Shown: positions 5,130 to 58,737, counted from the first letter of the stretch. The stretch is 64,000 bases of DNA from Candidatus Kapaibacterium sp. (GCA_027082775.1 JALWUI010000063.1:4975-68974); one strand, 5' to 3'. Translations and numbers: made by a program. Notes: generated by a model not told the origin, from the sequence alone.

Positions 5130-5167
5130 GATCCGCCAAAACTTCCTAAATTTGTACCTTTGCAAGG

Positions 5168-8216: not shown

Positions 8217-8264
8217 TACTCAGCACCTTCCACTTTTTAGTCAGTAACATAGCCGCGATTTTTA

Positions 8265-37265: not shown

Positions 37266-37308
37266 CGATGATCTCCTTTGTTGTGCTCACAAACAAATCT
37301 TGCAGTAC

Positions 37309-37372
37309 TACAAATTTACGCCGCCCGTTGCTTCAATGCAATAGCATTTTTTCCAAAATGTCACTGGAAGAA
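37309..37372 (-). promoter_or_regulatory. Conserved upstream motif plus Bacteroidetes-type -33/-7 promoter (copy 1) for the HAF-metzincin gene
   Basis: Gene-sense sequence ...CCAGTGACATTTTGGAAAAAATGCTATTGCATTGAAGCAACGGGCGGCGTAAATTTG. TTG and TAAATTTG (TAnnTTTG) are spaced 20 nt apart; the upstream block recurs at 58760 and 51710. Confidence 0.5.
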
Positions 37373-38014: not shown

Positions 38015-39613
38015 CTACTCTGCCACCAGCTCGTGCCATTGCAGAAATGTCAGCGCTGGCATTCGCCCGCTACCTTCTTCCCACTCCTGCTGCCGTTTCT
38101 GCTGGTAGTATTCCGTGATCGACATACCTGCTGCTTTCGCTTCCAGCCAGGTGAGAATATCGAATTCGATCGATTCCTGCTCCAGAGCTTCTGAAAGGAT
38201 GCGATGGATGCGCTGGTAAAACGGCAGCGTTGCCGAAAGGTGCGATGCGGCAACAGTGCTGGATATTCGCTGCAGGATGCGTCGCATCACCCCTACCACG
38301 GGGACAAATGAAGGGTACTGCTGCACAAAGCGGTAGAGGCGTCCTAAAGCACGCTCTGTTGCTTCAAAGTCGCGCTGTTCCCAGGCGATGATGCTGAGAA
38401 GGAGTCGCACGAGAAAACCGATTTGTTGCAACAGCCGTTGTGAGGTGCGATCGTATGCGGCTTCCAGGTACTGACGGGCAAGGTCATACTCTTGCAGCCA
38501 GAAAGCAATGCAGCCAAGGTGGTACAAAGCCGCTTTGTAAAAGTAGGGATATCGCTGGCAATACTGTTGCAGAATCTGTTCGATTATCTGCCGATGGGCA
38601 AAGATTTCTTCAAACTGTCCTAATTCCAGCGCCAGATACAACACCACGTTCAGATACAGCATCTCCACCTCGTCCCTGATGATGTCGTTTTCTTGAGCAG
38701 CACCGTTTTCCTGTTGCCAAAGCTGTTTGATGGTTTCAAATCGTCGCTCGATGGTGTGGGCATCGCGGGCGGCGGCAGCACTGATAATCTGGTTATGCAG
38801 CGCATTGAAATAGGCTAACGGGTACCACTGCGGTCGCTGGGAATCGTACTGAAAATACTGGATCAACTGTTCATAGCATTCTACTGCCCGTGCTGGCTGA
38901 CCACTAATAGCCCATAGCAGTGCCTCGGTGTTCCAGCGCAAAAAGGGGATGGGGAAAGGATCGGTCATATAAGCAGGAATGCACTGAAGCTGATCGATCA
39001 CTGGCTGAATAAGCATCTTGCCCTTAGCACTGGAAGCTCGAACGTTGCCCTCAACGTAGCGGGTGTTCCACCGGGAGTGAATATCCAGTAATTGCACGAA
39101 CCGCTGGGTCTGGTCCAGCGCTTCCTGCAACTGTTTCAGGTGCTGAGAAAGCTCCTCCTGGCTGAACAACTGAAAATTCCGATGACTGTGATACTCAAGT
39201 TGCAACACCGCTGCCGCCAGTTTTTGCACAGGATCACCAGCGATGTCGGCAGTGCGGTAGGTTTTTTGTGCGGCTTTTATAGCATCGCTATCCTGTCCTC
39301 CTACAAAAGCGAAGCGGGAGAGAACCAGGTTGAACAGTCCAGCACTCTGCTTGTCCTGTTTCATTAAAACGTACGTTCCAATCTGCAACACTCTGGTATA
39401 CACCTTGTGCCGCAGCGCTCGAAGATCTGTCTGAATTCCCTGCTGCTGGAGGGCAGAGCGCAACTGTTGATCGCCCCATTCTGGATGCTGTTCCAGAAGC
39501 TCCAGAAAGACCTGCTCTGCTTCCGTGAGTTGAATCCGTATCCCTTGCTTGATTTGCTGCCACAGGTCTGAAGGAAGTGTGCGCAATAATTGATTCAGTT
39601 TGTAATGTGCCAT
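38015..39613 (-). CDS. Hypothetical all-alpha (TPR-like) cytoplasmic protein, paralog 1 of a two-member family in this window
   Basis: No signal peptide; helical composition. It is roughly 65-70% identical across its full length to the ORF at 51807..53387 (MAHYKLNQLLRTLP... vs MADHKLDQLLRALP...). Confidence 0.6.
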   Translation of the reverse strand: MAHYKLNQLLRTLPSDLWQQIKQGIRIQLTEAEQVFLELLEQHPEWGDQQLRSALQQQGIQTDLRALRHKVYTRVLQIGTYVLMKQDKQSAGLFNLVLSRFAFVGGQDSDAIKAAQKTYRTADIAGDPVQKLAAAVLQLEYHSHRNFQLFSQEELSQHLKQLQEALDQTQRFVQLLDIHSRWNTRYVEGNVRASSAKGKMLIQPVIDQLQCIPAYMTDPFPIPFLRWNTEALLWAISGQPARAVECYEQLIQYFQYDSQRPQWYPLAYFNALHNQIISAAAARDAHTIERRFETIKQLWQQENGAAQENDIIRDEVEMLYLNVVLYLALELGQFEEIFAHRQIIEQILQQYCQRYPYFYKAALYHLGCIAFWLQEYDLARQYLEAAYDRTSQRLLQQIGFLVRLLLSIIAWEQRDFEATERALGRLYRFVQQYPSFVPVVGVMRRILQRISSTVAASHLSATLPFYQRIHRILSEALEQESIEFDILTWLEAKAAGMSITEYYQQKRQQEWEEGSGRMPALTFLQWHELVAE

Positions 39614-39875
39614 CGTGCGTTCAGCTTGCTTGAACGTCCCGGCATAAATTTAGCAAATTGGATGCAAAGCGCTGTTGCCTTTGCCACTTTGCGAGAGTCT
39701 CAGGCTTCAATCTTTTGGGGACACTATTCAACGCAAAGACAGCCCCTTTCCTGACTGCTAGCACTTCTGCAAACATTGTTCAGTGTGGAGGGAACGAGCA
39801 GCGCACGGCACCGAGTCAATGGGCGTGTTCTCGCAGTGGTATACATGCCCGATCTTCGCGTACCAATGTTTGTTG

Positions 39876-40571
39876 TCAATCGTTATGCTGGCGCAGTGCT
39901 TCCAGTACCTGCTGGATGTGGCGACAAACGGTTGTCGCAGAGCAGCGATGGAGGCGAGCAATTTCTTCTAAGGTCCATCCCTGAGCCCTGCGGTACACCA
40001 TATCCCAGACGTCCGGACCGAACCGCCGGCGTATCCACTGCTCAAGACGCTCCAGTTGCAGTCGGGCATCCACTGTCATTTCGGGAGAATGCAAGTCGAC
40101 CGGTTCCTGAGAGAGTGCAGACACTTTCTGCGCCCGTCTGCGATTCTCCGAGGTGAGAGAGCGAACGGCGACTTTTTCCGCATAGCGCCAGAGCGCTCCG
40201 GGAATATGCCGAATCTTCCGGGGTGATTTCTCCAGAAGGACTGCAAGCGCTTCTTGTACCGCATCCTCTCGATCCTCTGGAGGAAAAGCAGCAAAGTGGT
40301 GGTCCAGAAAGTGCTGGAGCGTGTGCTGCAAGATGCGAAGCGCAACCGGGAACTGTAAGAGGTCAGGCGGGTGATAACTCGACACCTGGCATTGCTCTGC
40401 AACTTTCGGGAGGAGGGCATCAAAGTGGAAGAACGCATCTACCACCTCCGTTATGGACTCTTCCTCCAGTAGTTGACCCAGGACCTGCGTTATTTGATGC
40501 GGTGCGATATCTGGCAGGGCATACTGGAACAGTGGTAAGAGTTGCTGGACAATGGTCGTCTCCTCACTCAT
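39876..40571 (-). CDS. Sigma-70 family (ECF-like) RNA polymerase sigma factor
   Basis: Region-2-like EDAVQEALAVLLEK..ALWRYAEKVAVRSL and region-4 HTH GWTLEEIARLHRCSATTVCRHIQQVLEAL. Start assigned to MSEETT, with a TTTG-N15-TTAAATTAG promoter-like element just upstream. Confidence 0.6.
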   Translation of the reverse strand: MSEETTIVQQLLPLFQYALPDIAPHQITQVLGQLLEEESITEVVDAFFHFDALLPKVAEQCQVSSYHPPDLLQFPVALRILQHTLQHFLDHHFAAFPPEDREDAVQEALAVLLEKSPRKIRHIPGALWRYAEKVAVRSLTSENRRRAQKVSALSQEPVDLHSPEMTVDARLQLERLEQWIRRRFGPDVWDMVYRRAQGWTLEEIARLHRCSATTVCRHIQQVLEALRQHND

Positions 40572-40823
40572 AGCGATATACCCCCATCTCAGCGACTCTT
40601 TGATCGGTTCTAATTTAAGCATTTCCCTGCAAAATCGGCATCGATGCCCATTATGCGATGCCTCAGCCACTGAGGAACCGGTTTTTTTTCTCTTTGCAGA
40701 TTTCTCGATCACCGTCAGCACTTTCACTGCTGGCTCCAGCGATTGGACGTGAAAAATTTTGCGCCGAAAATCCTCTATAGAGTTTGGGAAGGTAATCAGT
40801 CGCAAAACTACGATAGATAGGCT

Positions 40824-41285
40824 ATGAGAAGAAAGGCAACAGTGATTTTCATCTTGATGGGATTGTTTGTCAGTGTGTATTATACCAATGCAGCAACTAA
40901 AGATTGGGTGCCTTCTTTAAAATGCGGACCTGGAATTGTTTTTACTCGAGTGGGACCTGCTATCGAATGGCTATGCTTCGAATATGTGGCAGGTTGCTAT
41001 GTAACCTGCAAATATGTGTGTACCTATGAATCGGAAGGTCACCGTTATACTTTCGTCTTTAGATGTAGAGAAGGACTGTGGCAGTTTCCATCTTTAGTAT
41101 GTCTGCGACGTCCTTATGGTGTTCGGAGTTGCAATGATCCTCAAGATCTCTTCTTATTATGCAATCAACAATTCTCAGTTTTACAGCAGATTTATTGCGA
41201 GAGCTGCGAAGACTTTGACAGTGGAGATATTTTCTGTGCTCAGGTTTTGACCATAGAGCCGCGAATTCTGGCGCCCGGACAATAA
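40824..41285 (+). CDS. Small secreted cysteine-rich protein with Sushi/CCP-like spacing; lies in an AT-rich islet
   Basis: Signal peptide; about 13 Cys residues; the segment C-GPG...C...G-Y..C...G..Y....C..G-W..P...C resembles the Sushi/CCP consensus. Local GC is about 42% against about 57% elsewhere. Confidence 0.45.
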   Translation: MRRKATVIFILMGLFVSVYYTNAATKDWVPSLKCGPGIVFTRVGPAIEWLCFEYVAGCYVTCKYVCTYESEGHRYTFVFRCREGLWQFPSLVCLRRPYGVRSCNDPQDLFLLCNQQFSVLQQIYCESCEDFDSGDIFCAQVLTIEPRILAPGQ

Positions 41286-41318
41286 GAGCCGTTTCACAGA
41301 TAAAGGAAGCTCGAAAAG

Positions 41319-42659
41319 ATGCGTTGGAGATTAATAGGATTGTTCGTTATTTGCGCTTGTTGTAATTCTTTGTTTGCCCAGCGATGGATTGACCAATTTT
41401 ACCCGCATCCTCTCTTCCTTCTCTCAATGAGGGATGAGGGTAAGCTTTCATACTACGAATTTGATGATCACTTTGACTCCGTTGGGATTAGTTGTACCAT
41501 TGGTGAATTCCGCCTCCTGCTGGACAGCATAACGGAACGGGTAATTCCCATCCAGTACGAGTCCATTCCTTCTGAAGGGATCAAAGGGATTCCAGATCGT
41601 GGACTGGACACCTTTCTCCTCAACTTCACGCGCACGGATACCTTTACCATTCCCAGCAATGCAACACTCTTTTTCTTTCGATTACTTCGTCGCGGTTTCC
41701 CATTTCTGCCGATACCACTGGACTCGTCGCTGTCGCCACCGCATTGGACCGATGCGTACTGGGTAACGCCACCGGGATGGATTCAGGATACGGTAATTTT
41801 CGTCACGGAGCTCCGCCGCGCCAGTGACAACACAGTACTGGCAGTACTCGACAGCGTCGGCGTATATCCGAATCGGCAGTCGTGGTTTCCTGTTCGCTTT
41901 GGCACTGAGCCCAATCGAACGCGGCATTTCCGATCGCTTCCTTCAGAACTTGCAGGAACGACTGCATACGTGCAGATCAAAGCCTATCGGTATGGTCCCA
42001 CGCCGTATGGCCTCCATCTGTTCCGCTCCTTAGAATGGTGCTCCCTCTCTACTATGATGGAGTATGACAGTAGTGCAATAGCCGAAGGGCGGGGTATATG
42101 GGCTATTTCAGAGGCGGAAATGGACTCCCTAAGCCACGCATATTATGCTACTTTGCGCGCCTACCTGGACTTTGGCTTGGCAGCAACAGGCAAGTTGCCG
42201 CCGCACATTCCTCCCTTTGCCTTTGTACTGGACTCTGCAATTCGGGCGGATTACGAAGCACGCTACGGGGGGTATCCCAGGGAATTTGATCCAGAATTTG
42301 TATTTGTGCTGGACACGATTTGGGGCGATACCAGTGCACGGATGATTCGAGGAAAGTTGACCGGCATTACATCGACTGCTATCTCTTCCATCTCGTTCAT
42401 AAGCGTAACTGTCGATGGCAATGCTTCGCCACCAGTACTGCACCTGAAGATCGTCACATCGCAACCATTGCCCGGTAGTACCATTTCAATCATCGATGTC
42501 TTAGGACGAGACCTTGGTCTCATCTGGAACAGCAATCTTCAGTCTGGCAGCAATGAGCTCCAGATCCCGCTCCCGCAATCGCTCTCGACAGGACAATACT
42601 TCCTGATACTCCGCGATCAACACAATCAGATCCTCGCCATCCAGGACTTCACGTTATAG
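41319..42659 (+). CDS. Hypothetical secreted protein with T9SS C-terminal sorting-domain-like tail
   Basis: Signal peptide MRWRLIGLFVICACCNSLFAQ. The C-terminal 80 aa have a CTD-like beta pattern (...QYFLILRDQHNQILAIQDFTL). The 5' portion is AT-rich. Confidence 0.5.
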   Translation: MRWRLIGLFVICACCNSLFAQRWIDQFYPHPLFLLSMRDEGKLSYYEFDDHFDSVGISCTIGEFRLLLDSITERVIPIQYESIPSEGIKGIPDRGLDTFLLNFTRTDTFTIPSNATLFFFRLLRRGFPFLPIPLDSSLSPPHWTDAYWVTPPGWIQDTVIFVTELRRASDNTVLAVLDSVGVYPNRQSWFPVRFGTEPNRTRHFRSLPSELAGTTAYVQIKAYRYGPTPYGLHLFRSLEWCSLSTMMEYDSSAIAEGRGIWAISEAEMDSLSHAYYATLRAYLDFGLAATGKLPPHIPPFAFVLDSAIRADYEARYGGYPREFDPEFVFVLDTIWGDTSARMIRGKLTGITSTAISSISFISVTVDGNASPPVLHLKIVTSQPLPGSTISIIDVLGRDLGLIWNSNLQSGSNELQIPLPQSLSTGQYFLILRDQHNQILAIQDFTL

Positions 42660-42819
42660 CAGTGCCGCCGGGGGCACAATACCCCCGGTGGTGGAATTCA
42701 GTCCCCGGCGTTTCCGGACATTTCGCGCAGGCTTGCACCACAGATAAGGAATAAGCGCCTACGCCAGTCGGCATCACCTCCGGCTCCACGCGCATACTTA
42801 CCAAAAACCGGCTATGTTC

Positions 42820-43310
42820 CATCGACCGGGAGCGCACACTCTTAGGTGTGTATCGTTGATCCTTATGCCGACTGAAGTCGGCGCTCCCAGTCGGCGCTCC
42901 CGGTAAGCGATCCCAACTGCTGGGAGCGCACGCTCTTAGGCGTGCATTGCCCTCACCCTAACCCTCTCCCAGCGGGAGCGGGAATTTTTGCATCTGTAGG
43001 GAGCGACTCGGCTGGTCGCCATCACCCGCACCCGTAGGGGCGACCGGCCGGTCGCCCCTACTACACATTTACGCCAGTGCCTCCTTTATCATCTGCCGGC
43101 TGAACCCGGCGCTCCCAGTTCAGTGCTTCCACCTACTGGGAGCGCACACTCTTAGGTGTGCATCTACTGGGGAGCGCACCCTTCAGCGTGCATTCACTGG
43201 GAGCGCACCCTTTAGGGTGCATCTTTGCCGGCTAAAGCCGGCGCTCCCAGAGGAGCGCACGCTTCAGCGTGCACCATCTCTGTGGTAGGACAACCCTCCG
43301 GGTTGTCCAA
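42820..43310. repeat. Hairpin-array repeat cluster F
   Basis: Units GCACACTCTTAGGTGTGT/C (3 copies), CCGACTGAAGTCGG, CTCACCCTAACCC..GGGAGCGGG, GGCGACCGGCCGGTCGCC, GCACCCTTTAGGGTGC and GGACAACCCTCCGGGTTGTCC. Confidence 0.75.
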
Positions 43311-43548
43311 AGCAATGCTTTGCTATCCACTGCTGGCGAAAGTCGACGCTCTCAGCCCTGAGGAAGGAAATAGAGCAGATGGCTTTTTCCATATGGAGGA
43401 AATCTTCGAGGCTTCGGGAAGAACCGTGCCCAGGTTCAGCGAAGGACGTATCCTAAGAGTGCCGATAGCGTGCCTTCCTTGCTTATGTCAGATTTCGATA
43501 GCTACACATCACGGAAACCCACGCGATGGCTGCTGCCCGTGAAAATCC

Positions 43549-44937
43549 TCAACGCACCACAATCACCTTCACTGTTTTGTTCAATTCCCCAGCACGGATG
43601 TGGCACAGGTAGATGCCTTCAGGTATCCCCAGCAACGCCCATCGCACCTGATGTTCGCCGGGTGGCAGCATCCTATCGACCAGCGTTGCTACGTGGTATC
43701 CCAGCAGGTTGTAGATTTCCAGCGCTACGGGTGCAGGCTTCGGCAGCGAAAAACCGATGTGGATGTCAAGGCTGGCGGGAGGGTGCACAACGTTGACCTT
43801 CCACGGAATATCTCCATCATCGCTCAGGTCCGTGGACGATTGCGCATCCAGCCAGAAGGCTTCTCTCCAGCGACCTGCTATGGCATTGAATCCTACGCCC
43901 ACGATGTAGCGGCCATCTGGCAGGATGGCGCGTGCTTCCTTGAGAAAGGAATCGCCGGCGAGCAGGGTGCTGTAGGTCTGGCTGAGGTTTTCCGCTATGC
44001 CTGCCACGGCATCCCACCGAACAGCGCGGACCTCGCCACTATCATTCTCTGCCCAGCCGACGACATACCGTCCGTCCGACGAAACGCCCACAGCCCAACT
44101 CGAACCGCCGCCCAGCGTACCGAGGTCCTGGGTCAGACCAGTTTCCATATCCCACCGAACAGCGTGGACGTCACCGCTGTCATTCTCTGCCCAGCCAACC
44201 ACAAATCGCCCGTCGGCTGAGATGCCAAACGCATAGCTTTCGTTCCCTCCTAAGGCTCCAAGCTCCTGAATTTCCCCGCTCTGCATATCCCATCGCACAG
44301 CGCGCCATTGCCCAGCAGCATTTTCTGCCCAGCCGACAACAAATCGTCCATCGGCGGAGATCCCGTAGGCAATGCTCTCACTGCCGCCCGGCGTTCCCAG
44401 TTCTTCCATCTGTCCAGACTGCATATCCCACCGTACGGCACGCCATTGCCCAGCAGCATTTTCCGCCCAGCCGACGATGAAGCGTCCATCGGCGGCAATG
44501 CTATACGCCCGACTCCAGCCACCACCCAGATGCCCCAGATCCTGCACCTGGCCGGTTAGCGCATCCCACCACGCAGCGCGCCGCCAATTGCTGTCGTTTT
44601 CTGCCCAGCCGACGACATATCGACCATCGGCGGAAATCCCGAACGCGACACTCTCCTTTCCTCCAAGGGTTCCCAGATCCTGCACATGTCCAGTCAGCAC
44701 ATCCCACCGCACAGCTCGCCGCCAGCTACTATCGTTTTCCGCCCAGCCGACAACGAAACGCCCATCGGCAGAGATCCCATACGCCCAGCTTTTACTTCCG
44801 CCCAGCGTCCCCAGCCAGCGCAGATGCTGCCCGTTGCCGGTGCTAACAGCAAGGAGCAGAACGAAGCCTGCTGAATACACCCATCGACGCATTGCTTCTC
44901 TCCTGATCGTTCCTGAAAGTACGAGGGAAATTAACAC
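43549..44937 (-). CDS. HAF-repeat protein (seven repeats) with T9SS C-terminal sorting domain
   Basis: Seven tandem units (RRAVRWDvlTG.vQDLGTLGG..S.A.GISADGRfVVGWAEN) followed by a CTD (GIYLCHIRAGELNKTVKVIVVR). The start may be the internal MRRWVYS (44892). Confidence 0.7.
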   Translation of the reverse strand: MLISLVLSGTIRREAMRRWVYSAGFVLLLAVSTGNGQHLRWLGTLGGSKSWAYGISADGRFVVGWAENDSSWRRAVRWDVLTGHVQDLGTLGGKESVAFGISADGRYVVGWAENDSNWRRAAWWDALTGQVQDLGHLGGGWSRAYSIAADGRFIVGWAENAAGQWRAVRWDMQSGQMEELGTPGGSESIAYGISADGRFVVGWAENAAGQWRAVRWDMQSGEIQELGALGGNESYAFGISADGRFVVGWAENDSGDVHAVRWDMETGLTQDLGTLGGGSSWAVGVSSDGRYVVGWAENDSGEVRAVRWDAVAGIAENLSQTYSTLLAGDSFLKEARAILPDGRYIVGVGFNAIAGRWREAFWLDAQSSTDLSDDGDIPWKVNVVHPPASLDIHIGFSLPKPAPVALEIYNLLGYHVATLVDRMLPPGEHQVRWALLGIPEGIYLCHIRAGELNKTVKVIVVR

Positions 44938-45433
44938 TGAAGTGAGAAGATCCTGAGGTTCTATGGATCATCGTTTTTCTGCTTCCACCCGGTAAACCCA
45001 AAAACAATAGCCACGTATTTTGTGGTTCTGTCATTATCATTCCTGCTTTACCAGAAGCCCATAGTGCGATAGGCGAAAATACGAAAAAAATGCTAACTAT
45101 CGAGCCGAATGAGAAAATTGTTTCCCTTACACGATGCTAGCTATGGTTTCCCTTACACAATCCTGGCTATGCTCAGCGCACCACTGGAAGAGAGGACAAT
45201 GCTGACACGGTGCGATCACAGTGGGTCTTCCATCAGCGCATCACTGGTACAGAAAGGGAGCACCTCCTTGCACAATCCCGGCAATACCCAACACTCCCCC
45301 GAAATCCCGGCGGTACGGGGGAACCGTTACTGAAACGCTGCTGCACAGTGCAGCATCGGTGGGGGCCTTCTTCGCAGTCTCGCTACGCTCTGAGTGTCTC
45401 CATAAACTCAGCACAGTAACGGCTTTCTCGCTC

Positions 45434-47956
45434 CTACTTCACCACAACGATACGTTTCACATCAACGGCGCCGCCAGCGTTGAGGTGATACACATAGACT
45501 CCCGCCGGCAATGCCGTTGCATCGAGGACTACCGACTGCTTCCCTGCTGCCATTGCACCTTCCACGATGATTGCTACCGTTCTGCCCAGCATATCGGTAA
45601 CCGTCAGCCGCACGTACGCTGGTTGGGGTAGTACGAATTCGATGCGCGCTGTCTTCATCAGGGGATTGGGATGCACGGTCGAAAGAAACCATTGTGACTG
45701 GCGGTTCCTCCGGGTTCCTCGAACGGCAGTAACGAACGCATCATCGGTGCGCCACAGCCCGCCGCCCAGCGTGCCGACATAGAGCTGACTCGGACGGGTG
45801 GGGTTGAGTGTGATGAACGTGATGAGCGTGTGCTGGAGGTTGTTTGTGATATCTGTCCAGGTCTGTCCGCCATCGGTGGTGACGTGAATCCCTTTCTTCA
45901 TCGACGGGAGATACTGGTACCACCCCTGCACAGCAACGGCGATGTTGCGGGGATTCGCTGGATCGATCGCAACATCGAAGGTTCTGGGTGCGTCGAAGAT
46001 TTTCGTCCACGTAGCTCCGCCGTCCGTTGAGCGATATAACCCGCCATCGGTGCTCCAGTCGTAGAAATCTGTCGCACACACGTAGATCGTTCCTTCACTG
46101 TCGAATTTGATGTTGAAAACGCTGGAAGCAGGAAAGTGCTCCAGTCTGCGCCACGTAGCACCGCCGTCTGTGGATGCGTACAGTCCACCCGGACCGCCAC
46201 GACTTCCTTTGTAGAGTCCTACGAAAATTTCATTGGCGTTCGCCGGATTGATGGAAAGTGTCCAGATATACCGGAAGTTAGTATCCACTCCGAGTTGTAT
46301 CCAGTTGTTTCCACTATCCGTGGATTTGTAAAGCCCGTTCCAGAAGCTGGCGTAGTACAGCGTCCGTGTCTGCGGCGTTCCAGAAGCTGTGTCCATTGCC
46401 AGGAAGGGTTTTCCTTTCGGCAGATTGGCAACACGCTGCCACGTGTTCCCCCGATCCCGGCTGATCCATAAGCCGCCATCAGCATAGCCAATTGTCTCCG
46501 TTGCTCCTATGCCTTCGTATCGGGTCATATAGATGATGTTGCTGTTCGCCGGGTCAACAATGATATTTCTGGCAGCATCGTACCCTTCATACGGATCTTG
46601 ATACGGATCCAGCGGGTAGAATGAATATCCACCGTCATCGGATCGAAACGGTCCAAAGTCATCGTAGGCGACATACAGCACGCCCGGATCGGAGGGATCA
46701 AAAGCAATTCCTTCAACCGCCATACACTCCATTCCTCGCGTGGTCCATCCATTTGCCGTTTTCGTGGCATATATTTGCTCCCACGTTTCACCTGCATCCG
46801 TGGTTTTGTATACATCCACCGTTCCCATTACCAGAATCGACGGATCGCTGGGTGCTATTTCCAGATAGTGGGTGTTGTACTCTGAAAAAAACGGTGCTTC
46901 CAGCCAGCCTGTTGAGGTGCGATAGCCTTGCTGTATCCGCCGCCAGGTCTGTCCTCCGTCGGTAGTTTTGAAAATTCCCGCACCAGACCACGCAGCGTAG
47001 TTCCGAAAAGTTGCGATATAGATAATCTCCGGATTGGAGGGATGGACAGCGAAACTTACGTAGGTATAAGCAGCCTCATCTTCGACGCTCCACTTTGGAA
47101 GATTTCCGGTAATATCCATCCAGGTTTCTCCAAGGTTGGTGCTTCTGAATATGCCTCCCGTGTAGCGGGTTGTATCCTGCGGATTGACATCCAGTTCGAC
47201 AGTGACAAACAACAGCAGTTGTCCGTTGTGCGCAACGCCCCGGAGTTGCCGGCAGATTTTATCCGTCAGCCCGTTGTTCACTGCCTCCCACGTCTGTCCT
47301 CCGTCATCGCTTCTGTATATCCCGGAATCTGTTGCGACAAAAATTCGTCTGTTGCCAACCGGAGAGATCGGGTCGATCACGATGCCAGTGATATTCGAAG
47401 GGTCGCCGGGCAGATAGAGTGTATCCCACGTCTGCCCGCCGTCACTGGTTCTGTATAATCTTCCCGTCCCTTCACCGAGTTCGTGCCGATTTCCCGAACC
47501 GACGAGAATGAAATTCGTATCGGCAGGATCAATTTCGATCACGGCAGCAGCGATTTCGTCGAGCCGTTCGGTGTACTCGATCGTATCCGGAAAAAAGAGT
47601 TGCCAGTTATCGCCGGCTGCGGTGCTTTTGAAAACTGCTCCGGCGGCAATGAATACCGAGTGATAATTGAGTGGGTTGATCGCTATGTCCTGAACGTAAT
47701 AAGCGTTTGCAGCGAAGGTTCTACTGAGCGTGTTATTGATCATCCGCCACGTTCTGCCACCATCGGTTGTTTTGAAAATTCCCTCGATGTCTCCAGCAAC
47801 ATAGATCACGTCCGGGTTATCCGGTTGAAAAGCGGCTGTCAACAGATCGCTGCCAGCGCCCGGTCCAACGGGCGTCCATTGCTGTTGCTGCGCCATTGTG
47901 AAAGATCGAAGCACAAAGAGCGCGGAGAGAGTAAACAGCCAGAGTCTGGAATCCAT
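45434..47956 (-). CDS. BNR/Asp-box repeat (sortilin/VPS10- or GH74-like beta-propeller) protein with T9SS C-terminal sorting domain
   Basis: At least ten S/T-x-D-G-G-x-T-W Asp-box motifs (TTDGGRTW, TSDGGQTW, SDDGGQTW, STDGGATW...), signal peptide, CTD (GVYVYHLNAGGAVDVKRIVVVK). Confidence 0.7.
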   Translation of the reverse strand: MDSRLWLFTLSALFVLRSFTMAQQQQWTPVGPGAGSDLLTAAFQPDNPDVIYVAGDIEGIFKTTDGGRTWRMINNTLSRTFAANAYYVQDIAINPLNYHSVFIAAGAVFKSTAAGDNWQLFFPDTIEYTERLDEIAAAVIEIDPADTNFILVGSGNRHELGEGTGRLYRTSDGGQTWDTLYLPGDPSNITGIVIDPISPVGNRRIFVATDSGIYRSDDGGQTWEAVNNGLTDKICRQLRGVAHNGQLLLFVTVELDVNPQDTTRYTGGIFRSTNLGETWMDITGNLPKWSVEDEAAYTYVSFAVHPSNPEIIYIATFRNYAAWSGAGIFKTTDGGQTWRRIQQGYRTSTGWLEAPFFSEYNTHYLEIAPSDPSILVMGTVDVYKTTDAGETWEQIYATKTANGWTTRGMECMAVEGIAFDPSDPGVLYVAYDDFGPFRSDDGGYSFYPLDPYQDPYEGYDAARNIIVDPANSNIIYMTRYEGIGATETIGYADGGLWISRDRGNTWQRVANLPKGKPFLAMDTASGTPQTRTLYYASFWNGLYKSTDSGNNWIQLGVDTNFRYIWTLSINPANANEIFVGLYKGSRGGPGGLYASTDGGATWRRLEHFPASSVFNIKFDSEGTIYVCATDFYDWSTDGGLYRSTDGGATWTKIFDAPRTFDVAIDPANPRNIAVAVQGWYQYLPSMKKGIHVTTDGGQTWTDITNNLQHTLITFITLNPTRPSQLYVGTLGGGLWRTDDAFVTAVRGTRRNRQSQWFLSTVHPNPLMKTARIEFVLPQPAYVRLTVTDMLGRTVAIIVEGAMAAGKQSVVLDATALPAGVYVYHLNAGGAVDVKRIVVVK

Positions 47957-48017
47957 CGTACAGCTCCTTTTATTTTTTCCAACACTGTTTTCAGACAGGA
48001 TATTGAAGACTGCCGGG

Positions 48018-48340
48018 AGCGTTGACCCTGAGAGCGCCGGCTTTAGCCGGCACGTTCATGCACCCTAAAGGGTGCGTTCCCAGTGAATGCACGCTGAAGC
48101 GTGCGCTCCCAGTGACTGGAGCGCCGACTTCAGTCGGCAACAACTTCCCTCCTTCTCTGGGAGAGGGTGAGGGTGGTGCACACCTCAGAGTGTGCGCTCC
48201 CAGGCGATGGAAACACCGACACTGAGAGTGCCCCACTGGGAGCGCCGACTTCAGTCGGCAATAACTAAACAGCAGGACAAGCCGCTGGCTTGCCCTGGAC
48301 ACCCCGGAGGGGTGTCCTACCACCGTAAATGCGCACTGAA
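48018..48340. repeat. Hairpin-array repeat cluster G (inverted orientation relative to D/E)
   Basis: GCACCCTAAAGGGTGCGTTCCCAGTGAATGCACGCTGAAGCGTGCGCTCCCAG is the reverse complement of the D/E module. Also CCGACTTCAGTCGG (2 copies), CCCTCCTTCTCTGGGAGAGGGTGAGGGTGG and GGACACCCCGGAGGGGTGTCC. Confidence 0.75.
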
Positions 48341-48447
48341 GGGTATGCTCCCGATAGATGCGCCCCAAGGGCGTGCTCTCATCTGAATTCACCCTGGAAT
48401 GTCCACTGTTCATCATAAGGGATCCTATCGCTATTGAGCCCAGTACA

Positions 48448-51375
48448 CTACCGGCGCACGAAAAACGGCTGGACTACCGTTGTGGTTCCATACCGGAACT
48501 GGCACACATACATCCCATTGCTCAGCATCGGGAGTACTGGCTGGAAGCAGCGCTGTCTTATGTCCACGTGCTGTTTCCAGAGCAATCGCATTTGTGCATC
48601 GTAGATCGATACGGTCGCTGTGCCGCTGCTTTGCGGTAGCACACTCCAGCAGATGGTAAAGCGCCCATCGTTGACTGAAGGATTGATAGAAAGGTCAAAA
48701 GCTGGGTAATCTCGATGCTCTGCCACTTCTGCTGGCGTCTCTGCGCGCTGAAGCGGAACATACCACAGCCCCGGATGGTACGTTGTGGCGGGATCATCCC
48801 ACTGCGCCTTTGCTGGGAAAAGTTCTACGACACAGGAAGAATCAGTAACAGGCACCAGCACATCATTTGCTTTGCCATCCAATCCGATCAGATGAATCTG
48901 ATCATCATTCGGTGTCCAGCCAGCAATCGCCGCTCGACGGCGTATGCGCCTATCCCAGGACAACTGGTAGATCCGGGTTTGGTAGCTCCGATCGTTGTTT
49001 TCCATTGTATCGATACGGATCAGACACCAGAGTCCCGAAGCAGTCAGCGCCTGCGGCACAATCCACCACTCTGCTTCTACTGGTTCAGGAAAACTCCATT
49101 GCCGGATGACACGCCGGGTTGTGAGATCATAAGCCGTTATGGTGTGGATCTTTTCATTTGGAGCCAGACCGACAATTTCCGTCCAGACCAGGGTGTTGCC
49201 GAAAAGGCGAGCGCGGTGAATCGCCGCCGAAGGAGCTTGACTAACAATTCGCTGCTCTGTCCGGGATCGGTAATCAAAGACAACCAGCGTGTCCGGCTTG
49301 TCAACTCGCCCCGTATCCGGTAAGCGCCATACTACCCGACCTTTTTGATGGTCGAGAATATCGTAGAACCGGGCATCAGCGATGGGATGGTTCCATTCTG
49401 CTAACACGGTATAGGGATGATTGGGTCCCCATACAACTATTTGCACCGAATCACTGCCCCGGTAACTTCGTCGCCACGCCATCACGCTGCCATCCAGATG
49501 GAAATCCTCATTGGTCCAGAGCGTAAAGGTGGGGCGAAGGGCAAGGGATTGAATCGATCGGGTATCGACATCGCCGACATAGAGCGTATCTCTATACTCA
49601 TCGGTCCACCAGATTCGCCGGTTGGCAACGCCGAGCAAGTGGAGGCGGGAGGGGAAGGCGGTATGCGGTTCCCACTGCCACCCATACCGGAGCCGGTCAT
49701 CTTCATAGTTGATGAAAGCAGCAGTCGAATCCTGTACCCATCCTGGCAGTTGCTTCACCTGGTGGTCGCTGACAACCCACGCGATACCGGTGTTACCAGC
49801 AACGACATCGCCAAGTGTCAGCGCTCGTTGCGGTGGGTTGATACTGTAAGCATTGACCGTATCATAGAGCACGCCGGCAAACAACAGCGATTGCACCTTC
49901 CAGTTCCGAAGGTCCGCTCGGTAAAGCAGACAGAAAATGTCATCACCCCGCGTTGGAACAACGCTGGCGAACCGTGCATTCCCCCACAAAAGAGCTACAT
50001 TCTGTGCATTGCTGCCGAACAATGCGCCATTCCCCAGAAAATGTGCTGAATCCAGACTTCGGCTCTGGAGTTTACAATCGTACAGTTTCTTTGTGCCAAG
50101 ATTGACCACAACATAGCTACACATCACATCCGATGGAGTCAGTGAGGGTTCGGTCAACGCAATGCCAATGACTTTTTTCGGTACGGTGTGCAACACCTGC
50201 TTTACCACCACCGAATCCTGGCGTTCCAGAAAACGGAGAATTCGGGCAGCAGCACTGAAGTCCACGTATGCAGCTTCGTATTCTGACAAAAGCGCGATGT
50301 CCGTTGAGTCAAACTCAGTTTCGTAAGCCGAAAATGATTTGTCAGCAAACGGTCGGCGCTTGAGCTGATACTGAAATCCCCATCGGGGATCCACATTCCG
50401 ATCTTGTACCCAGAGGGCGATCCAGAAATCCCGGACCAGCTCAACGAACGAGCGATCGGCACCCACCTGCCGGAGTGCAGAATCAATCCCGGCTCTGCCG
50501 GATAGCGGATTCTGCACAAGGTATCGTAAGAGTGTATCGCCGTACTGTTCCAGACAGTACTTGTAGAACAGCGCTGCTCGCCCGTAGGTTATTTCCGCAT
50601 CTTCTCTTGAAAAATCGGCAAACTGGAGAATTCCTCTTCGCTTGTAAGCTGGAAGCGCTGTCACGAAAGAGTTCACAAACTCATCCCACTGAAAGCCACA
50701 AATATATTCTCCCATCTGCGCCCGTCCTTCTAAGCTGAAGCGTTCTTCTTGCGGATCATATCGATGTTCGATCAGGTGAACCAGTTCGTGGGCAGCCGTG
50801 CCTGCGATTTCAGCAACGGTTCCGGTGCCAAAATTTCGCCAGTTCAGGTAGAGAATATTGCCCTTATTGCTTTTGTCAGTGTCCTTTTGATCCATCGGGC
50901 TGAACCATCCACGCGCAGCGTAGTTGACGTCTGTAACAAGATAGTGGACTGTATCAGCATTGCCCTGTGGGAATTGATTGGGTACAGTCCCAACCCATTG
51001 GTGCAGGAGCGTTCCAATTCCCAGATTGGGATTTTTTGATCCGTCAGGAGTTTGATTCGCCAGGAAATTGAGCAACGTGTCGACTTTCGGTTGAACAGCC
51101 GCATTGCCGGAGAGTGCTGTGTCGATCCATAGCTTGAAAGGGAAGCCACTGTACCCTGTCCGGAAAAGCTGAAAAGTGCGCCGCTGACGGAAGGATTGGG
51201 TAGTATCCACAGGATCCTGAACATCCACGTAGAAATTCCTCAGGGGACCATCCAAAACTTCCTGAATAAACTCAACCGGTTGCTGATATGCCTTCGAAAA
51301 GAAGGCAGGTTCTTGAGCAAAGCTGCTGATCGCGATCAGCAGTGCCAGTGTAATAACACCTTTAGGGATTCCCAT
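48448..51375 (-). CDS. 975-aa secreted putative zinc metalloprotease (HExxH) with T9SS C-terminal sorting domain
   Basis: Signal peptide MGIPKGVITLALLIAISSFAQEP; motif TAAHELVHLIEH; C-terminal CTD (MYVCQFRYGTTTVVQPFFVRR). Confidence 0.55.
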   Translation of the reverse strand: MGIPKGVITLALLIAISSFAQEPAFFSKAYQQPVEFIQEVLDGPLRNFYVDVQDPVDTTQSFRQRRTFQLFRTGYSGFPFKLWIDTALSGNAAVQPKVDTLLNFLANQTPDGSKNPNLGIGTLLHQWVGTVPNQFPQGNADTVHYLVTDVNYAARGWFSPMDQKDTDKSNKGNILYLNWRNFGTGTVAEIAGTAAHELVHLIEHRYDPQEERFSLEGRAQMGEYICGFQWDEFVNSFVTALPAYKRRGILQFADFSREDAEITYGRAALFYKYCLEQYGDTLLRYLVQNPLSGRAGIDSALRQVGADRSFVELVRDFWIALWVQDRNVDPRWGFQYQLKRRPFADKSFSAYETEFDSTDIALLSEYEAAYVDFSAAARILRFLERQDSVVVKQVLHTVPKKVIGIALTEPSLTPSDVMCSYVVVNLGTKKLYDCKLQSRSLDSAHFLGNGALFGSNAQNVALLWGNARFASVVPTRGDDIFCLLYRADLRNWKVQSLLFAGVLYDTVNAYSINPPQRALTLGDVVAGNTGIAWVVSDHQVKQLPGWVQDSTAAFINYEDDRLRYGWQWEPHTAFPSRLHLLGVANRRIWWTDEYRDTLYVGDVDTRSIQSLALRPTFTLWTNEDFHLDGSVMAWRRSYRGSDSVQIVVWGPNHPYTVLAEWNHPIADARFYDILDHQKGRVVWRLPDTGRVDKPDTLVVFDYRSRTEQRIVSQAPSAAIHRARLFGNTLVWTEIVGLAPNEKIHTITAYDLTTRRVIRQWSFPEPVEAEWWIVPQALTASGLWCLIRIDTMENNDRSYQTRIYQLSWDRRIRRRAAIAGWTPNDDQIHLIGLDGKANDVLVPVTDSSCVVELFPAKAQWDDPATTYHPGLWYVPLQRAETPAEVAEHRDYPAFDLSINPSVNDGRFTICWSVLPQSSGTATVSIYDAQMRLLWKQHVDIRQRCFQPVLPMLSNGMYVCQFRYGTTTVVQPFFVRR

Positions 51376-51694
51376 CTTTCATCCCTCCTGTTCTGTTGCA
51401 TTGCCCCATATTCAGTGCCCGGACTCGAAGGGCTCTTTTTTATCGTTTGTTCATTCCCCGAATTCTCTTTCAGGTCTTGACGCCTAACTCTTCCAGCATC
51501 AGAAATGCTGACCGGTGAATCTACCGCATTTTCGGATCCGAGCAAATTTACGTCGAAATTCCTTCCCAGCAAGGGAAAATTTTTGCAAATGTCCCGCAGG
51601 GGACAGGTGTTGATGATGATTCCTGCCGGGAAGCAAAGGAACGCTGGGTTTGAGGGTTCCCATAATTGACATTCCCCAAGTGTGGACACAATAC

Positions 51695-51762
51695 TGCAAA
51701 TTCACGCTACTTGCTGCCCGAATGCAATAGTGCTTTTCCCAACAAATGTTATTGTTTCAGCA
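51695..51762 (-). promoter_or_regulatory. Conserved upstream motif plus -33/-7-like promoter (copy 3), about 320 nt upstream of the HExxH protein gene
   Basis: Gene-sense sequence ...AACATTTGTTGGGAAAAGCACTATTGCATTCGGGCAGCAAGTAGCGTGAATTTG. A weaker related block lies at about 51545-51600. Confidence 0.4.
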
Positions 51763-51806
51763 ACACAGTTTCCCATCTTCTCATTCTCCGGAATAGGAGG
51801 AAATGA

Positions 51807-53387
51807 CTACTGCGGCACCAGCTCGTGCCATTGAAGGAATTTCAATGCTGGCATTCGTCCGCTGCTTTCTTTCCACTGCTGCTGCCGCTTCTGTTGATAA
51901 TACTCCGTGATTGATATCCCCTGCACCTTGGCTTCCAGCCAGGTAACCAGGTCAAACTCGATCGATTCTCGTGCCAAAGCCTCTGAAAAGATGCGATAGA
52001 TGCGCTGGTAGAACGGCTGCTCCTCCGGCAGTCGATGTGCTGCAAAGGTGCTCGGCATCCGCTCTACTATACGTCGCACTGCACGTACCACCGGAACAAA
52101 AGCTGGATACTGCCGGACGAACCGGCGAAGACGCTCCAGTAACCGTTCCAACGCCTCAATGTCCTGCTGCTCCCAGGCAATGATGCATAAAAGGAGTCGG
52201 ACCACAAAGCCAATTTGCTGCAACAGTCGTTGCGAGGTATGATCGTAAGCGGCTTCCAGATACTGGCGGGCAAGGTCGTATTCCTGTAACCAGAAAGCGA
52301 TGCAGCCCAGGTGGTATAAAGCCACTTTGTAAAAATATGGATACTGTCGGCGATAGTGCTGCAGTATCTTTTCAACGTGCGACCGGTCATTGAAAATGTT
52401 GTCGAAGCTCCCTAATTCCAGAGCTAAATACAGGACGATGTTCAGATACAACATATCCATTTCGTTTTTGATTGCAGCATCCGATTGCTGCCGGAGCCGT
52501 ATAATTTCCGCAAAGCACCGCTCGACGATCGCTGCGTTTCGGGCTGCTGTTGCAGCAACGACCTGATTATGCAATGCACTGAAATATGCCGGTAAATAAA
52601 GGTGTTTTCGACTTTCGGCGATCTGGAAATACCGAAGAAGCTGTTCATAGCATTGCACTGCTTTGTCCGGTTGTCCCTGTATGTTCCACAGCAGCGCTTC
52701 GGTGTTCCACCGCAGAAATGGGATGGGAAACGGGTCTGCTTCATAAGCAGGAATCTTCTGGAGTTGCTCGATAACCATAGGAGCAACTGTTGCAGCTTCG
52801 GAACTGGAAATCCGAATTTCTCCTTCAACGTACCACGAATACCATCGAGCATTTAACAGAAGCAATTGCACATATCGTTGAGTCTGGTCCAGGGCAGTCT
52901 GCAAGTGCTCGAAACTCTTACGTAATTCCTCGTGATCCAGCAGTTGGAGGTTTCGATGCAGATGGTACTCAAGCTGTAGCGCCATTGCTGCCAGCTTTTG
53001 AATAGGATCACCAGCGGTATCGGCTGAGCGATAGGTTTTTGCCACAGCCTTTAAAGCATCGCTATCCTGCCTCCACTCAAAAGCAAAGCGAGAAAGAACC
53101 AGATCAAACAATATAGTACTTTGTTTGTCCTGTTGCATTAGCACGTATGCTCCGATCTGCAATACCTTGGTGTACACTTTATGCCGCAGTGCTCGAAGAT
53201 CTGTCTGAATTCCTTGCTGCTGGAGCGCAGAGCGCAACTGTTGATCGTCCCATTCTGGGTACTGCTCCAGAAGACTCAGAAAAGACTTTTCCACCTCCGT
53301 CAGTTGAATCCGTATTCCCTGCTTGATCCGCCTCCGCCACACTGGCGGCAAGGCGCGCAGGAGCTGATCCAGTTTGTGATCTGCCAT
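51807..53387 (-). CDS. Hypothetical all-alpha cytoplasmic protein, paralog 2
   Basis: Full-length similarity to 38015..39613. Start assigned to MADHKLDQLL by alignment with its paralog. A conserved element, CATAAA(T)TTAGCRAATTG, lies 35-45 nt upstream of both paralogs. Confidence 0.6.
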   Translation of the reverse strand: MADHKLDQLLRALPPVWRRRIKQGIRIQLTEVEKSFLSLLEQYPEWDDQQLRSALQQQGIQTDLRALRHKVYTKVLQIGAYVLMQQDKQSTILFDLVLSRFAFEWRQDSDALKAVAKTYRSADTAGDPIQKLAAMALQLEYHLHRNLQLLDHEELRKSFEHLQTALDQTQRYVQLLLLNARWYSWYVEGEIRISSSEAATVAPMVIEQLQKIPAYEADPFPIPFLRWNTEALLWNIQGQPDKAVQCYEQLLRYFQIAESRKHLYLPAYFSALHNQVVAATAARNAAIVERCFAEIIRLRQQSDAAIKNEMDMLYLNIVLYLALELGSFDNIFNDRSHVEKILQHYRRQYPYFYKVALYHLGCIAFWLQEYDLARQYLEAAYDHTSQRLLQQIGFVVRLLLCIIAWEQQDIEALERLLERLRRFVRQYPAFVPVVRAVRRIVERMPSTFAAHRLPEEQPFYQRIYRIFSEALARESIEFDLVTWLEAKVQGISITEYYQQKRQQQWKESSGRMPALKFLQWHELVPQ

Positions 53388-54012
53388 CACTTTTCTGTTG
53401 CTATCTGTCACAGACCCACCAGACATAAAATTAGCGAATTGAGTCCGAATAGTTGCTGCATTTTTCACGTGCTGAAAAGATGCACTCCTTTTTCTGCCAC
53501 ACTTTATTCAAACGGGAAGAAAACGGCAGAGGCTTTGTGCTCATTCCACCGCCCAGCGCAGAGAGCAGAGCAATGTCGAATCCTTCGAGGATAACACAAA
53601 AGGGACAAAGAATAAAAAGAAGCGAGCGTTGCTCGAAAGCGCGTCTTTGGTCTTCGGGTCTCAGAAACAAAGGACCCAGTATGTACGAGAGCGATCTACA
53701 ACGGTAGCTGGTGCAACCAGTAGCTCAGGCTCCATAAAGAACCAATCCTCTGGCAGTAGCACCACCGGGCTTGTTCCTCGACGGGAAAACACCTGCCGAT
53801 TTCGCAGGATCAGCGTGATCAGATCTTTTCATTTTTCGACCCAACTACCCGTGACCACCCCATCGCTGTATGTGCTGGAATGCGGAGTCGGGGAATACTG
53901 AGGCGATGCTGCTGGCGTTCCTCAGACATCAATGGAATCCCATTGCAAATGCCCTGCTGTATTGGAAGTCAGGAGCTTTGGAGGTTTGATTCAACCAGCA
54001 CCCGTACTGGAG

Positions 54013-58668: not shown

Positions 58669-58737
58669 TGCTCAGCTCCTTTTGATTGAACACCTTAACT
58701 GAACAACAGTCTCTCCTTATTGCTGAATTCAACTTAC

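Follow-up and report, generated by a model that had tools for sequence, protein, structure and literature searches.

RusR-like proteins as candidate regulators of neighboring secreted and T9SS cargo genes in Candidatus Kapaibacterium

How individual T9SS cargo genes are regulated in Bacteroidota beyond the model species is, to our knowledge, largely unknown. Three described systems resemble parts of the locus analyzed here: RusR, the RRNPP regulators, and pairs of ECF sigma factors and anti-sigma factors.

RusR (BT2802) is a positive regulator of the ribose locus of B. thetaiotaomicron, defined by genetics (10.1101/574913). A ΔrusR strain does not grow on ribose and its induction of rus is ~10% of normal, and rusR, which is not itself induced, lies just upstream of the genes under RusR control (10.1101/574913; PMC12596196; PMC8121099). 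Our literature searches found no biochemical mechanism for RusR. The RRNPP regulators of Firmicutes (Rap, NprR, PlcR, PrgX) combine an N-terminal helical or helix-turn-helix domain and a TPR sensor in a single cytoplasmic polypeptide, a layout that resembles that of the proteins described below.

We analyzed a 64-kb stretch of Candidatus Kapaibacterium DNA (the window) that encodes two paralogous proteins, ParA and ParB, next to genes for secreted proteins. The best-supported reading is that they have a regulatory role. We believe, with a probability of about 0.55, that ParA and ParB belong to the RusR superfamily and act in the cytoplasm as one-component transcription regulators, activating the adjacent secreted and T9SS cargo genes, probably by binding DNA.

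Two paralogs with remote kinship to RusR

ParA (38015-39613, minus strand; 532 amino acids) and ParB (51807-53387, minus strand; 526 amino acids) are encoded 14 kb apart and are 68% identical over their full length (BLASTP). The complete ParB open reading frame is 51807-53468 on the minus strand, and the length of 526 amino acids is from the conserved MADH start at 53387; two alternative starts, an in-frame ATG at 53426 and a GTG at 53468, are not common to ParA. Both proteins carry the C-terminal tail GRMPAL(T/K)FLQWHELV, and neither has a signal peptide or a convincing transmembrane segment, their highest 19-residue hydropathy (1.5-1.7) falling within a confidently modelled helix. The AF2 model is all-alpha (pLDDT 84, pTM 0.83); in it, a TPR-like solenoid follows a small, confidently modelled helical bundle at the N-terminus. 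An earlier note, made from this DNA alone, had described two full-length helical paralogs of ~530 amino acids that lack signal peptides, and that description holds.

ParA and ParB are, by profile comparison, remote end-to-end homologs of the BT2802/RusR family. ParA matched NCBIfam NF058569 with 41.5 bits (E 8.8e-11), residues 7-498 aligning to model positions 8-497 of 502, and ParB matched it with 25.5 bits, residues 18-494 aligning to positions 19-499. When a profile of the ParA/ParB family was searched against 1.84 billion representatives, there were 72 matches, nearly all of 490-540 amino acids, and NF058569 was matched over its whole length by all 14 of the distant matches scanned (95-177 bits). 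None of these scores, including those of the ~500-aa intermediates, reaches the curated whole-protein cutoff of 550 bits. NF058569 as calibrated covers only close orthologs of BT2802, and it would leave the ~500-aa relatives at 95-177 bits unnamed. Word-indexed homolog searches found five close relatives only, and a search with a 61-sequence alignment yielded no more; a metagenome scan added two short contigs. A source name exists for a single relative, which is called 'hypothetical protein', and the cluster names were uninformative. The earlier note had recognized no domain and had called the family uncharacterized, which no longer applies given this homology to a family whose founding member is a genetically characterized positive regulator (10.1101/574913). 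The remote homology is to the RusR family, and not to an unrelated enzyme family, and linkage to cargo genes is conserved (see below); neither result that the earlier note took as refuting its view was obtained.

The resemblance to BT2802 is very unlikely to be a convergent similarity among TPR or low-complexity helical proteins, with ParA and ParB an unrelated orphan family. Scores of 25-41 bits are far under the cutoff and TPR proteins are prone to spurious profile matches, as convergence would have it. However, the alignments are colinear across ~490 of the 502 model positions, the matches in the reverse search are of nearly uniform size rather than TPR proteins of assorted lengths, and the AF2 pLDDT rose from 67 to 84 once the alignment included the distant members. 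In addition, the non-TPR N-terminal domain aligns by itself: residues 1-95 alone aligned over 79 columns with the corresponding domains of the distant members (hhalign probability 93.5%, E 2.3e-7), so the kinship extends to this domain taken alone.

Other searches returned mostly generic TPR matches. Pfam gave a single sub-threshold TPR in the paralogs, and Pfam, PADLOC and PDB sequence searches found generic TPR matches or nothing. Foldseek searches of the PDB with both models gave only TPR solenoids (E ~2e-3), and the best matches were generic TPR proteins, among them the receptor-regulators Rap and NprR (TM-score 0.5-0.56, normalized to the target). The TPR-containing anti-sigma factor DdvA (8rw5) was a weak match at rank 47. 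From the N-terminus, ParA is built of a helical domain of ~90 amino acids, a TPR-like solenoid, and a tail that is specific to the subfamily and has the pattern YYxQKRxQEWEE..GRxPxLxF. The N-terminal domain is the best-conserved part within the subfamily and its size fits a DNA-binding module. It had no sequence match to known helix-turn-helix families by Pfam (best E 0.07), by a PDB profile search, or by hhalign against GerE.

ParA and ParB share several properties with RusR. They are soluble, all-alpha proteins of ~500-530 amino acids in which the N-terminal domain and TPR-like body are colinear with those of RusR, their genes lie directly upstream, on the same strand, of the genes that each would control, and they are unlike the classical Bacteroidota regulators (hybrid two-component systems, SusR, and ECF/anti-sigma pairs). 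They differ from RusR in their low scores, in having an extra conserved C-terminal tail, in being present as two paralogs, one of which (ParA) is paired with an ECF-like sigma gene, and in their host, which is Candidatus Kapaibacterium and not Bacteroides. Their neighbors also differ, being secreted or T9SS cargo genes rather than genes for a ribokinase, SusC/D, or a permease; all the genes between ~29 kb and 63.7 kb in the window were scanned, and no ribokinase, SusC/D, or sugar permease was among them.

Cargo genes and the P* element

The genes downstream from ParA and ParB encode large secreted proteins. As marks of T9SS type A cargo, we looked for a signal peptide and a C-terminal sorting domain (CTD; TIGR04183/PF18962) above threshold. 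Downstream from ParA is g924 (34491-37265, minus strand), whose product is secreted and has HAF repeats, an HExxH metalloprotease-like region, and a CTD above threshold (TIGR04183, 26.5 versus 23). Downstream from ParB is g975 (48448-51375, minus strand), encoding a secreted MXAN_6640-like HExxH protein. Upstream of ParB are g548 (57022-58668, minus strand), encoding a Gly-rich lipoprotein, and, downstream of g548, g936 (54013-56823, minus strand), encoding a large secreted protein. Signal peptides are visible at the N-termini of g924 and g975, and g548 has a lipoprotein signal. The CTD of g840 is above threshold (27.3 versus 27), and those of g975 (19.1), g936 (20.3) and g462 (21.2) are all below 23. 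The gaps from ParA to g924 (750 bp) and from ParB to g975 (432 bp) indicate that the paralogs and the downstream cargo genes are separate transcription units. The earlier note had placed each paralog immediately upstream of a large T9SS cargo gene; the order and strand are as claimed, with the qualifications that the g975 sorting domain is sub-threshold and that the genes are separated by these gaps.

Three cargo operons are preceded by a conserved element of ~65 nt, which we call P*. In P*, a dyad, CATTTT-N4-AAAATG, is followed by a -33 TTG and, after a spacer of 20 nt, by a -7 TAAATTTG. The copy before g924 (37306-37368, minus strand) has the dyad CATTTT-GGAA-AAAATG at 37345-37360, cTTGCAT as the -33, the 20-nt spacer, and TAAATTTG as the -7 at 37311-37318, and is ~48 nt from the g924 start codon. 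A variant after ParB (51692-51754, minus strand), ~320 nt upstream of g975, has a degenerate dyad and TGAATTTG as its -7 box; a second TAAATTTG is at ~51550, between this copy and g975. The third copy (58735-58797, minus strand) precedes the g548-g936 operon and has a perfect dyad at 58774-58789; g548 is the first gene after it, and no regulator gene directly precedes this copy in the window. All three copies in the window, where none is expected by chance, precede minus-strand cargo genes, and g924 and g975 are candidate targets.

P* is kept in two other Kapaibacterium genomes, and it was found behind P0005 in L013 and, in L008, behind P0006, a 41%-identical homolog, before a gene for a 5610-aa protein. 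The order regulator, P*, cargo gene occurs in five different arrangements, including that of the 41%-identical homolog on another contig. P* is missing after one ParA ortholog, in the genome that has no cargo gene behind ParA. The dyad symmetry is retained although the spacer changes from GGAA to ATGA, and the most invariant positions are T.ACA.TTT and, ~17 nt downstream, TTG..T. Linkage to secreted and T9SS genes holds in related genomes, and it suggestively extends to distant members of the family: a gene with a T9SS CTD is the immediate neighbor in four of nine distant relatives (Fisher's exact p = 0.018 versus non-neighbor genes at the same loci, a small sample of nine).

Alternatively, ParA and ParB could work without binding DNA, as TPR scaffolds or chaperones. 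They would then act after transcription on the neighboring cargo, for example by holding it before Sec export or within a signaling complex, and P* would be an unrelated shared promoter. We think this improbable. TPR solenoids are typical protein-protein interaction modules, sequence searches detected no helix-turn-helix family, and a dedicated chaperone would also adjoin genes for secreted proteins. On the other hand, a dedicated chaperone is expected to need a feature common to its clients, and the cargo proteins (g924, g975, g548, and the 5610-aa giant) are unrelated; g924 and g975 have no similarity to each other and are not paralogs. Further, what the loci do share is a non-coding DNA element, the domain best conserved in the subfamily is the one of DNA-binding-module size, and loss of RusR in B. 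thetaiotaomicron reduces transcript levels (10.1101/574913). Of the roles the earlier note had offered, we found no support for that of chaperone, and that of candidate regulator gains from the RusR homology, the conserved P* before the cargo genes, and the linkage to secreted and T9SS genes. P* could still be a shared strong promoter that ParA and ParB do not bind.

The sigma-like gene and the motif upstream of each paralog

On the same strand as ParA, and 262 bp upstream, lies an ECF-type sigma-like gene (39876-40571, minus strand), in agreement with the earlier note, which had put it at ~260 bp. The gene encodes a protein of 231 amino acids with an N-terminal extension of ~95 amino acids. 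Residues 99-228 matched TIGR02937 (sigma70-ECF) with 46.3 bits, above the cutoff of 42.9. In Pfam, the region-4 matches were below threshold and Sigma70_r2 was not listed, and these weak matches indicate that the protein is a divergent ECF member. The gene is confined to this lineage, where it occurs only beside ParA orthologs.

The arrangement resembles that of the Bacteroidota ECF sigma/anti-sigma pairs, and on such a reading ParA would act through the sigma factor, with an anti-sigma, anti-anti-sigma, or co-activator function. The sigma factor would then read P* as a -35 GTRACA and a -10 TTGCAT, replacing the housekeeping sigma. All four to five related contigs keep the sigma-ParA pair and both genes are confined to the same lineage, the T.ACA.TTT and the TTG..T ~17 nt on, the most invariant positions of P*, could be read as an ECF-type -35/-10 pair, and TPR proteins, DdvA being an example, are known as partners of sigma factors. 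However, P* follows ParB, P0005, and P0006, none of which has an adjacent sigma gene, nor do any of the nine distant relatives. Pfam and NCBIfam found no anti-sigma domain (of the ZAS or the RskA/FecR type), and the proteins lack both a ZAS motif (HxxxCxxC) and a transmembrane segment. The conserved canonical TAnnTTTG -7 box, at the right distance from the TTG, would be left unexplained, the 262-bp gap holds a separate conserved motif that is shared with ParB, so that ParA apparently has its own promoter, and the genetics of RusR favor a stand-alone activator (10.1101/574913). For these reasons we consider action through the sigma factor unlikely, and the suggestion in the earlier note of an anti-sigma-like partner is not borne out.

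The motif shared by the two paralogs is CAATTTGCTAAATTTATG upstream of ParA (39643-39660, minus strand), which holds the -7-like TAAATTTA, and CAATTCGCTAATTTTATG upstream of ParB (53424-53441, minus strand). With up to three mismatches, CAATTYGCTAAWTTTATG has only two matches in the 64 kb (0.22 expected). The motif is kept in every ortholog of ParA and ParB while its flanks diverge. Since ParA and ParB are paralogs, the shared motif reflects ancestry retained under selection and not independent recurrence. That a common element precedes both genes is as the earlier note had claimed. Its reading as a -33/-7-like box is correct in part: a -7-like TAAWTTTA is present and there is no -33 TTTG at the canonical distance. 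A far clearer -33/-7 promoter is found downstream from each paralog, ahead of the cargo genes. We rejected the ATG within the motif as the start codon of ParA, since in the window it does not share the reading frame of ParA and the M17 ortholog has ACG in its place. A scan for sigma-70-type promoters and terminators found nothing above shuffled expectation near ParA (Bacteroidota promoters are outside the model of the tool); near ParB, the same scan found terminator-like sites somewhat above shuffles, none decisive.

Proposed mechanism and its reach

Returning to ParA and ParB as one-component regulators, we propose that each would bind, as a dimer, the dyad CATTTT-N4-AAAATG, using the N-terminal helical domain of ~90 residues, and that the TPR-like solenoid of ~400 residues would sense a ligand or partner protein. 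The dyad directly precedes the -33 of a promoter of the Bacteroidota housekeeping type (TTG-N20-TAnnTTTG), and binding there would presumably activate the adjacent g924, g975, and g548-g936. The layout matches that of the ribose locus, where rusR immediately precedes its target genes and their induction needs RusR.

With the RRNPP regulators, the resemblance goes no further than a functional analogy. Structures of Rap and NprR rank among the best fold matches of ParA and ParB, but the Foldseek E-value is only ~2e-3 and generic TPR proteins score equally. In addition, no Xre-type helix-turn-helix was detected in ParA or ParB, the ORF lists showed no evident neighboring gene for a small secreted peptide, and the RRNPP proteins are from another phylum. 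By this analogy, peptides or signals derived from the envelope might be what the TPR body senses.

The locus links two questions, the regulation of T9SS cargo and the mechanism of RusR, and P* is a concrete, conserved candidate operator and promoter that allows a direct test of whether the family binds DNA. With this locus the RusR family extends to Kapaibacterium, a lineage that branches deeply, and to candidate target genes of another class. More speculatively, the RusR-like superfamily of Bacteroidota (~500 amino acids, nearly all 'hypothetical') may be a widespread and unrecognized group of one-component regulators, mainly for local control of secreted and T9SS cargo, with the ribose locus as a special case and the P* dyad as the first operator for the class; we hold this wider view only tentatively.

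Rfam and tRNA scans of the island gave no matches. We also considered whether a unit of regulator, small ORF, and protease had been duplicated, and rejected this because the 118- and 117-aa ORFs are unrelated, as are the large downstream genes. The 118-aa ORF sits within an array of REP-like repeats.

RusR-like superfamily membership of ParA and ParB

By ORF list and translation, ParA is a 532-aa ORF (38015-39613, minus strand) and ParB a 526-aa protein (ORF 51807-53468, minus strand, with the conserved MADH start at 53387). The earlier note had described full-length paralogs with a common C-terminal tail and no signal peptide, and this description was borne out: both ORFs were confirmed, identity was 68% from end to end, both proteins carry the tail, and no signal peptide was detected in either. 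A ZAS motif and a convincing transmembrane segment were also looked for in the two proteins and not found, and Pfam gave a single sub-threshold TPR near residue 360.

Based on sequence and profile comparisons, we regard ParA and ParB as belonging to the RusR-like superfamily, in which they form a very divergent branch, and not as orthologs of RusR itself (BT2802 of Bacteroides thetaiotaomicron). The NCBIfam model NF058569 ("BT2802 family ribose utilization protein") aligned with ParA at 41.5 bits (E 8.8e-11; residues 7-498 to model positions 8-497 of 502) and with ParB at 25.5 bits (residues 18-494), both far below the curated cutoff of 550 bits. Though sub-cutoff, these alignments run counter to the earlier view of an uncharacterised family without a domain. 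An exhaustive reverse search of 1.84 billion representatives with a ParA/ParB-family profile (E<=1e-3) returned 72 proteins, nearly all of 490-540 aa, and every distant match that we scanned (14/14) fit NF058569 across the whole length at 95-177 bits. Residues 1-95, outside the TPR-like part, aligned independently to the N-terminal domains of distant members (hhalign 93.5%, E 2.3e-7), and AlphaFold pLDDT rose from 67 to 84, with pTM reaching 0.83, once distant members joined the alignment. Our placement is based on these end-to-end, reverse and N-terminal matches together with the gain in the AlphaFold model.

In the improved model, a confidently predicted N-terminal bundle (helices 15-28, 31-42, 48-57 and 64-86) leads into an unbroken TPR-like solenoid, and the C-terminal tail is of low confidence. 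Among solved structures we found none matching the family beyond TPR repeats: Foldseek against the PDB gave generic TPR proteins only (E ~2e-3), with the receptor-regulators Rap and NprR among the top matches. The fold matches support an analogy to the design of a small N-terminal effector domain plus a TPR sensor, but do not place ParA and ParB in the RRNPP family. By sequence, no known helix-turn-helix family matched the N-terminal domain, so DNA binding by ParA and ParB is putative.

Proteins of this kind are already known: the regulator family has been defined genetically and has a model in NCBIfam. BT2802 is located directly 5' of the ribose PUL; ribose does not induce it, cells cannot grow on ribose without it, and ~90% of rus induction requires it (Glowacki et al., bioRxiv 10.1101/574913). 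The results of a transposon fitness screen (PMC8121099) and of an iModulon study (PMC12596196) are consistent with this role, and the literature that we found on RusR reports no structure, operator or biochemical mechanism. The ParA/ParB branch differs from RusR in its lineage, its candidate targets (secreted/T9SS cargo, in contrast to the ribose PUL of RusR), an extra conserved C-terminal tail, an ECF-like sigma gene as partner, and an identifiable candidate operator.

The P* element and its cargo genes

We give a probability of roughly 55% to the reading in which ParA and ParB act as one-component regulators of the RusR-like type: the TPR body would sense some signal and, on sensing it, the proteins would switch on transcription from the neighbouring P* promoters of secreted/T9SS cargo genes. 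A repeat search found P* as a 63-nt family (D13) with exactly three copies in the window, all on the minus strand: at 37306-37368 before g924 (34491-37265), at 51692-51754 before g975 (48448-51375), and at 58735-58797 before the g548-g936 operon (57022-58668 and 54013-56823). A 36-nt degenerate P* pattern had three matches in the window versus zero in 100 shuffles. On the minus strand, 5' to 3', the element reads CAGTGA-CATTTT-GGAA-AAAATG-C..cTTGCAT-N17-TAAATTTG. Its TTG-N20-TAnnTTTG portion matches the published -33/-7 housekeeping promoter consensus of Bacteroidetes. Directly next to the -33 element is the dyad CATTTT-N4-AAAATG, at the position expected for a class II activator. In the window and the fetched loci the exact dyad was confined to P* elements, and in the related MAG M17 its symmetry is intact with the spacer ATGA in place of GGAA.

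The order regulator, P*, cargo occurred in five arrangements: ParA-P*-g924 and ParB-P*-g975 (each in the window and M17), ParB-P*-g924-like (in the related MAG S141_32), P0005-P*-g548-g936 (at locus L013), and, on an unrelated contig (L008), the 41% identical homolog P0006 followed by a recognisable P*-like element and a 5610-aa giant gene. In the genome with no cargo behind ParA, P* was absent downstream of ParA, which assigns the element to the cargo gene's 5' end and not to the regulator gene's 3' end. The earlier statement that a cargo gene follows each paralog applies to the window and M17, where g924, the HAF-repeat cargo gene, lies after ParA, but not to S141_32, in which the g924 homolog lies behind ParB and ParA converges on a 1244-aa Ig-repeat gene. 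The rule is thus only partly conserved. The S141_32 homolog (L006:12137-14941) is 67% identical to g924 and P* travels along with it; this cargo-plus-promoter cassette has relocated between two regulator loci.

Of the functions proposed earlier (regulator, anti-sigma-like partner, chaperone), that of a regulator is the best supported. A chaperone or scaffold fits poorly and is very unlikely, as the cargo proteins are mutually unrelated whereas a DNA element is what they have in common, and RusR exerts its effect on transcripts. When compared, neither the two downstream cargo genes nor the small ORFs between cargo and regulators proved related to each other.

A second perfect TAAATTTG lies at 51550 (minus strand), downstream of P* and ~175 nt upstream of g975, and is conserved in M17; g975 may be served by two promoters or have a leader that is long and structured. 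Behind the third P*, the first gene is g548; its product is a predicted lipoprotein that matches no family and whose C-terminal part contains a long region of Gly-rich (GGxGG) repeats. At L013:2083-3503, the single ParA/ParB-like gene P0005 was called as 378 aa, and its C-terminal remainder, including the conserved tail, runs on in another frame to ~3503; the cause is a frameshift or deletion or, alternatively, a fault in the assembly.

Sigma231 and the motif upstream of the paralogs

The main rival reading, which we consider unlikely, is that ParA works through sigma231, the product of the neighbouring gene (39876-40571, minus strand, 231 aa), with P* as an ECF-type promoter. The earlier sigma-70/ECF-like call stands, as sigma231 passed the sigma70-ECF model (46.3 bits versus a cutoff of 42.9); no match to Pfam Sigma70_r2 was listed. 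The protein has an N-terminal extension of ~95 aa without a detectable domain, and its homologs form only three clusters in a collection of 5.8 billion proteins. In favour of this rival, the pairing of sigma231 with ParA is restricted to the lineage and P* might be read as -35/-10. Against it, P* lies behind ParB and behind relatives that likewise have no sigma gene, P* carries a canonical -7 box, ParA lacks anti-sigma features, and the gap between sigma231 and ParA is 262 bp with a motif of its own.

That motif, CAATTYGCTAAWTTTATG, lies at 39643-39660 before ParA and at 53424-53441 before ParB. These were its sole matches in the window at <=3 mismatches (0.22 expected), and it is retained in all orthologs of both paralogs while the flanking sequence diverges, confirming the earlier proposal of a common upstream element. 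The proposed -33/-7-like box held in part: a -7-like TAAWTTTA is inside the motif, but there is no -33 TTTG at the canonical distance. We rejected the ATG of CAATTYGCTAAWTTTATG as a shared start codon because, although in frame with ParB, it does not share the reading frame of ParA, and one ParA ortholog has ACG in its place. A second box, TTGAATA(A/G)(A/T)GT, lies ~70 nt further upstream (~39700-39715 and ~53505-53515, minus strand) and is conserved in all ParA and ParB orthologs.

Close relatives of ParA and ParB formed only five clusters among the 5.8 billion proteins, and a metagenome scan contributed two further short contigs. The named genome contigs among the matches are Candidatus Kapaibacterium MAGs. 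Single contigs of two other species carry both paralogs in unchanged order, and the sigma231-ParA pair is conserved in all of these.

Distant members and repeats in the window

Some of the distant superfamily members sampled also adjoin T9SS-CTD genes. Such a gene was the direct neighbour in 4/9 loci (L016, L017, L019 and L020), a suggestive excess over non-neighbour genes of the same loci in a small sample (Fisher's exact p = 0.018). The L016 neighbour is a Sortilin/BNR plus CTD protein closely resembling g840 of the window. On an unrelated Bacteroidota contig, L019 has two tandem RusR-like paralogs (4935-6482 and 7001-8542) that are 27% identical and both fit NF058569 at 167-177 bits; the T9SS-CTD gene is 32 nt behind the second. 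No ECF sigma gene adjoined a family member in the nine loci, and the two that lie at a distance of 2-3 kb are unremarkable.

REP-like palindromic arrays fill many intergenic regions throughout the window, inside and outside the island. Their units are similar to CTGGGAGCGC-ACCCTTTAGGGT-GC and TGCCGGCTAAAGCCGGCGCTCCCAG (31 matches versus 0.01 expected), and arrays lie at 6784-6965, 11927-11989, 29870-30081, 34174-34320, 37417-37900, 42750-43360, 48025-48352 and 61566-61819. Two minus-strand ORFs within arrays, of 118 aa (37520-37876) and 141 aa (47991-48416), have peptide motifs that repeat in several reading frames and are probably not genes; the "homologs" that tblastn returns for them reflect conservation of the repeats. 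Another window gene, g462 (44038-44814), has tandem coding repeats of 138 nt (HAF, TIGR02913) in common with g924 (36424-37178), and the two products are ~50% identical over ~340 aa.
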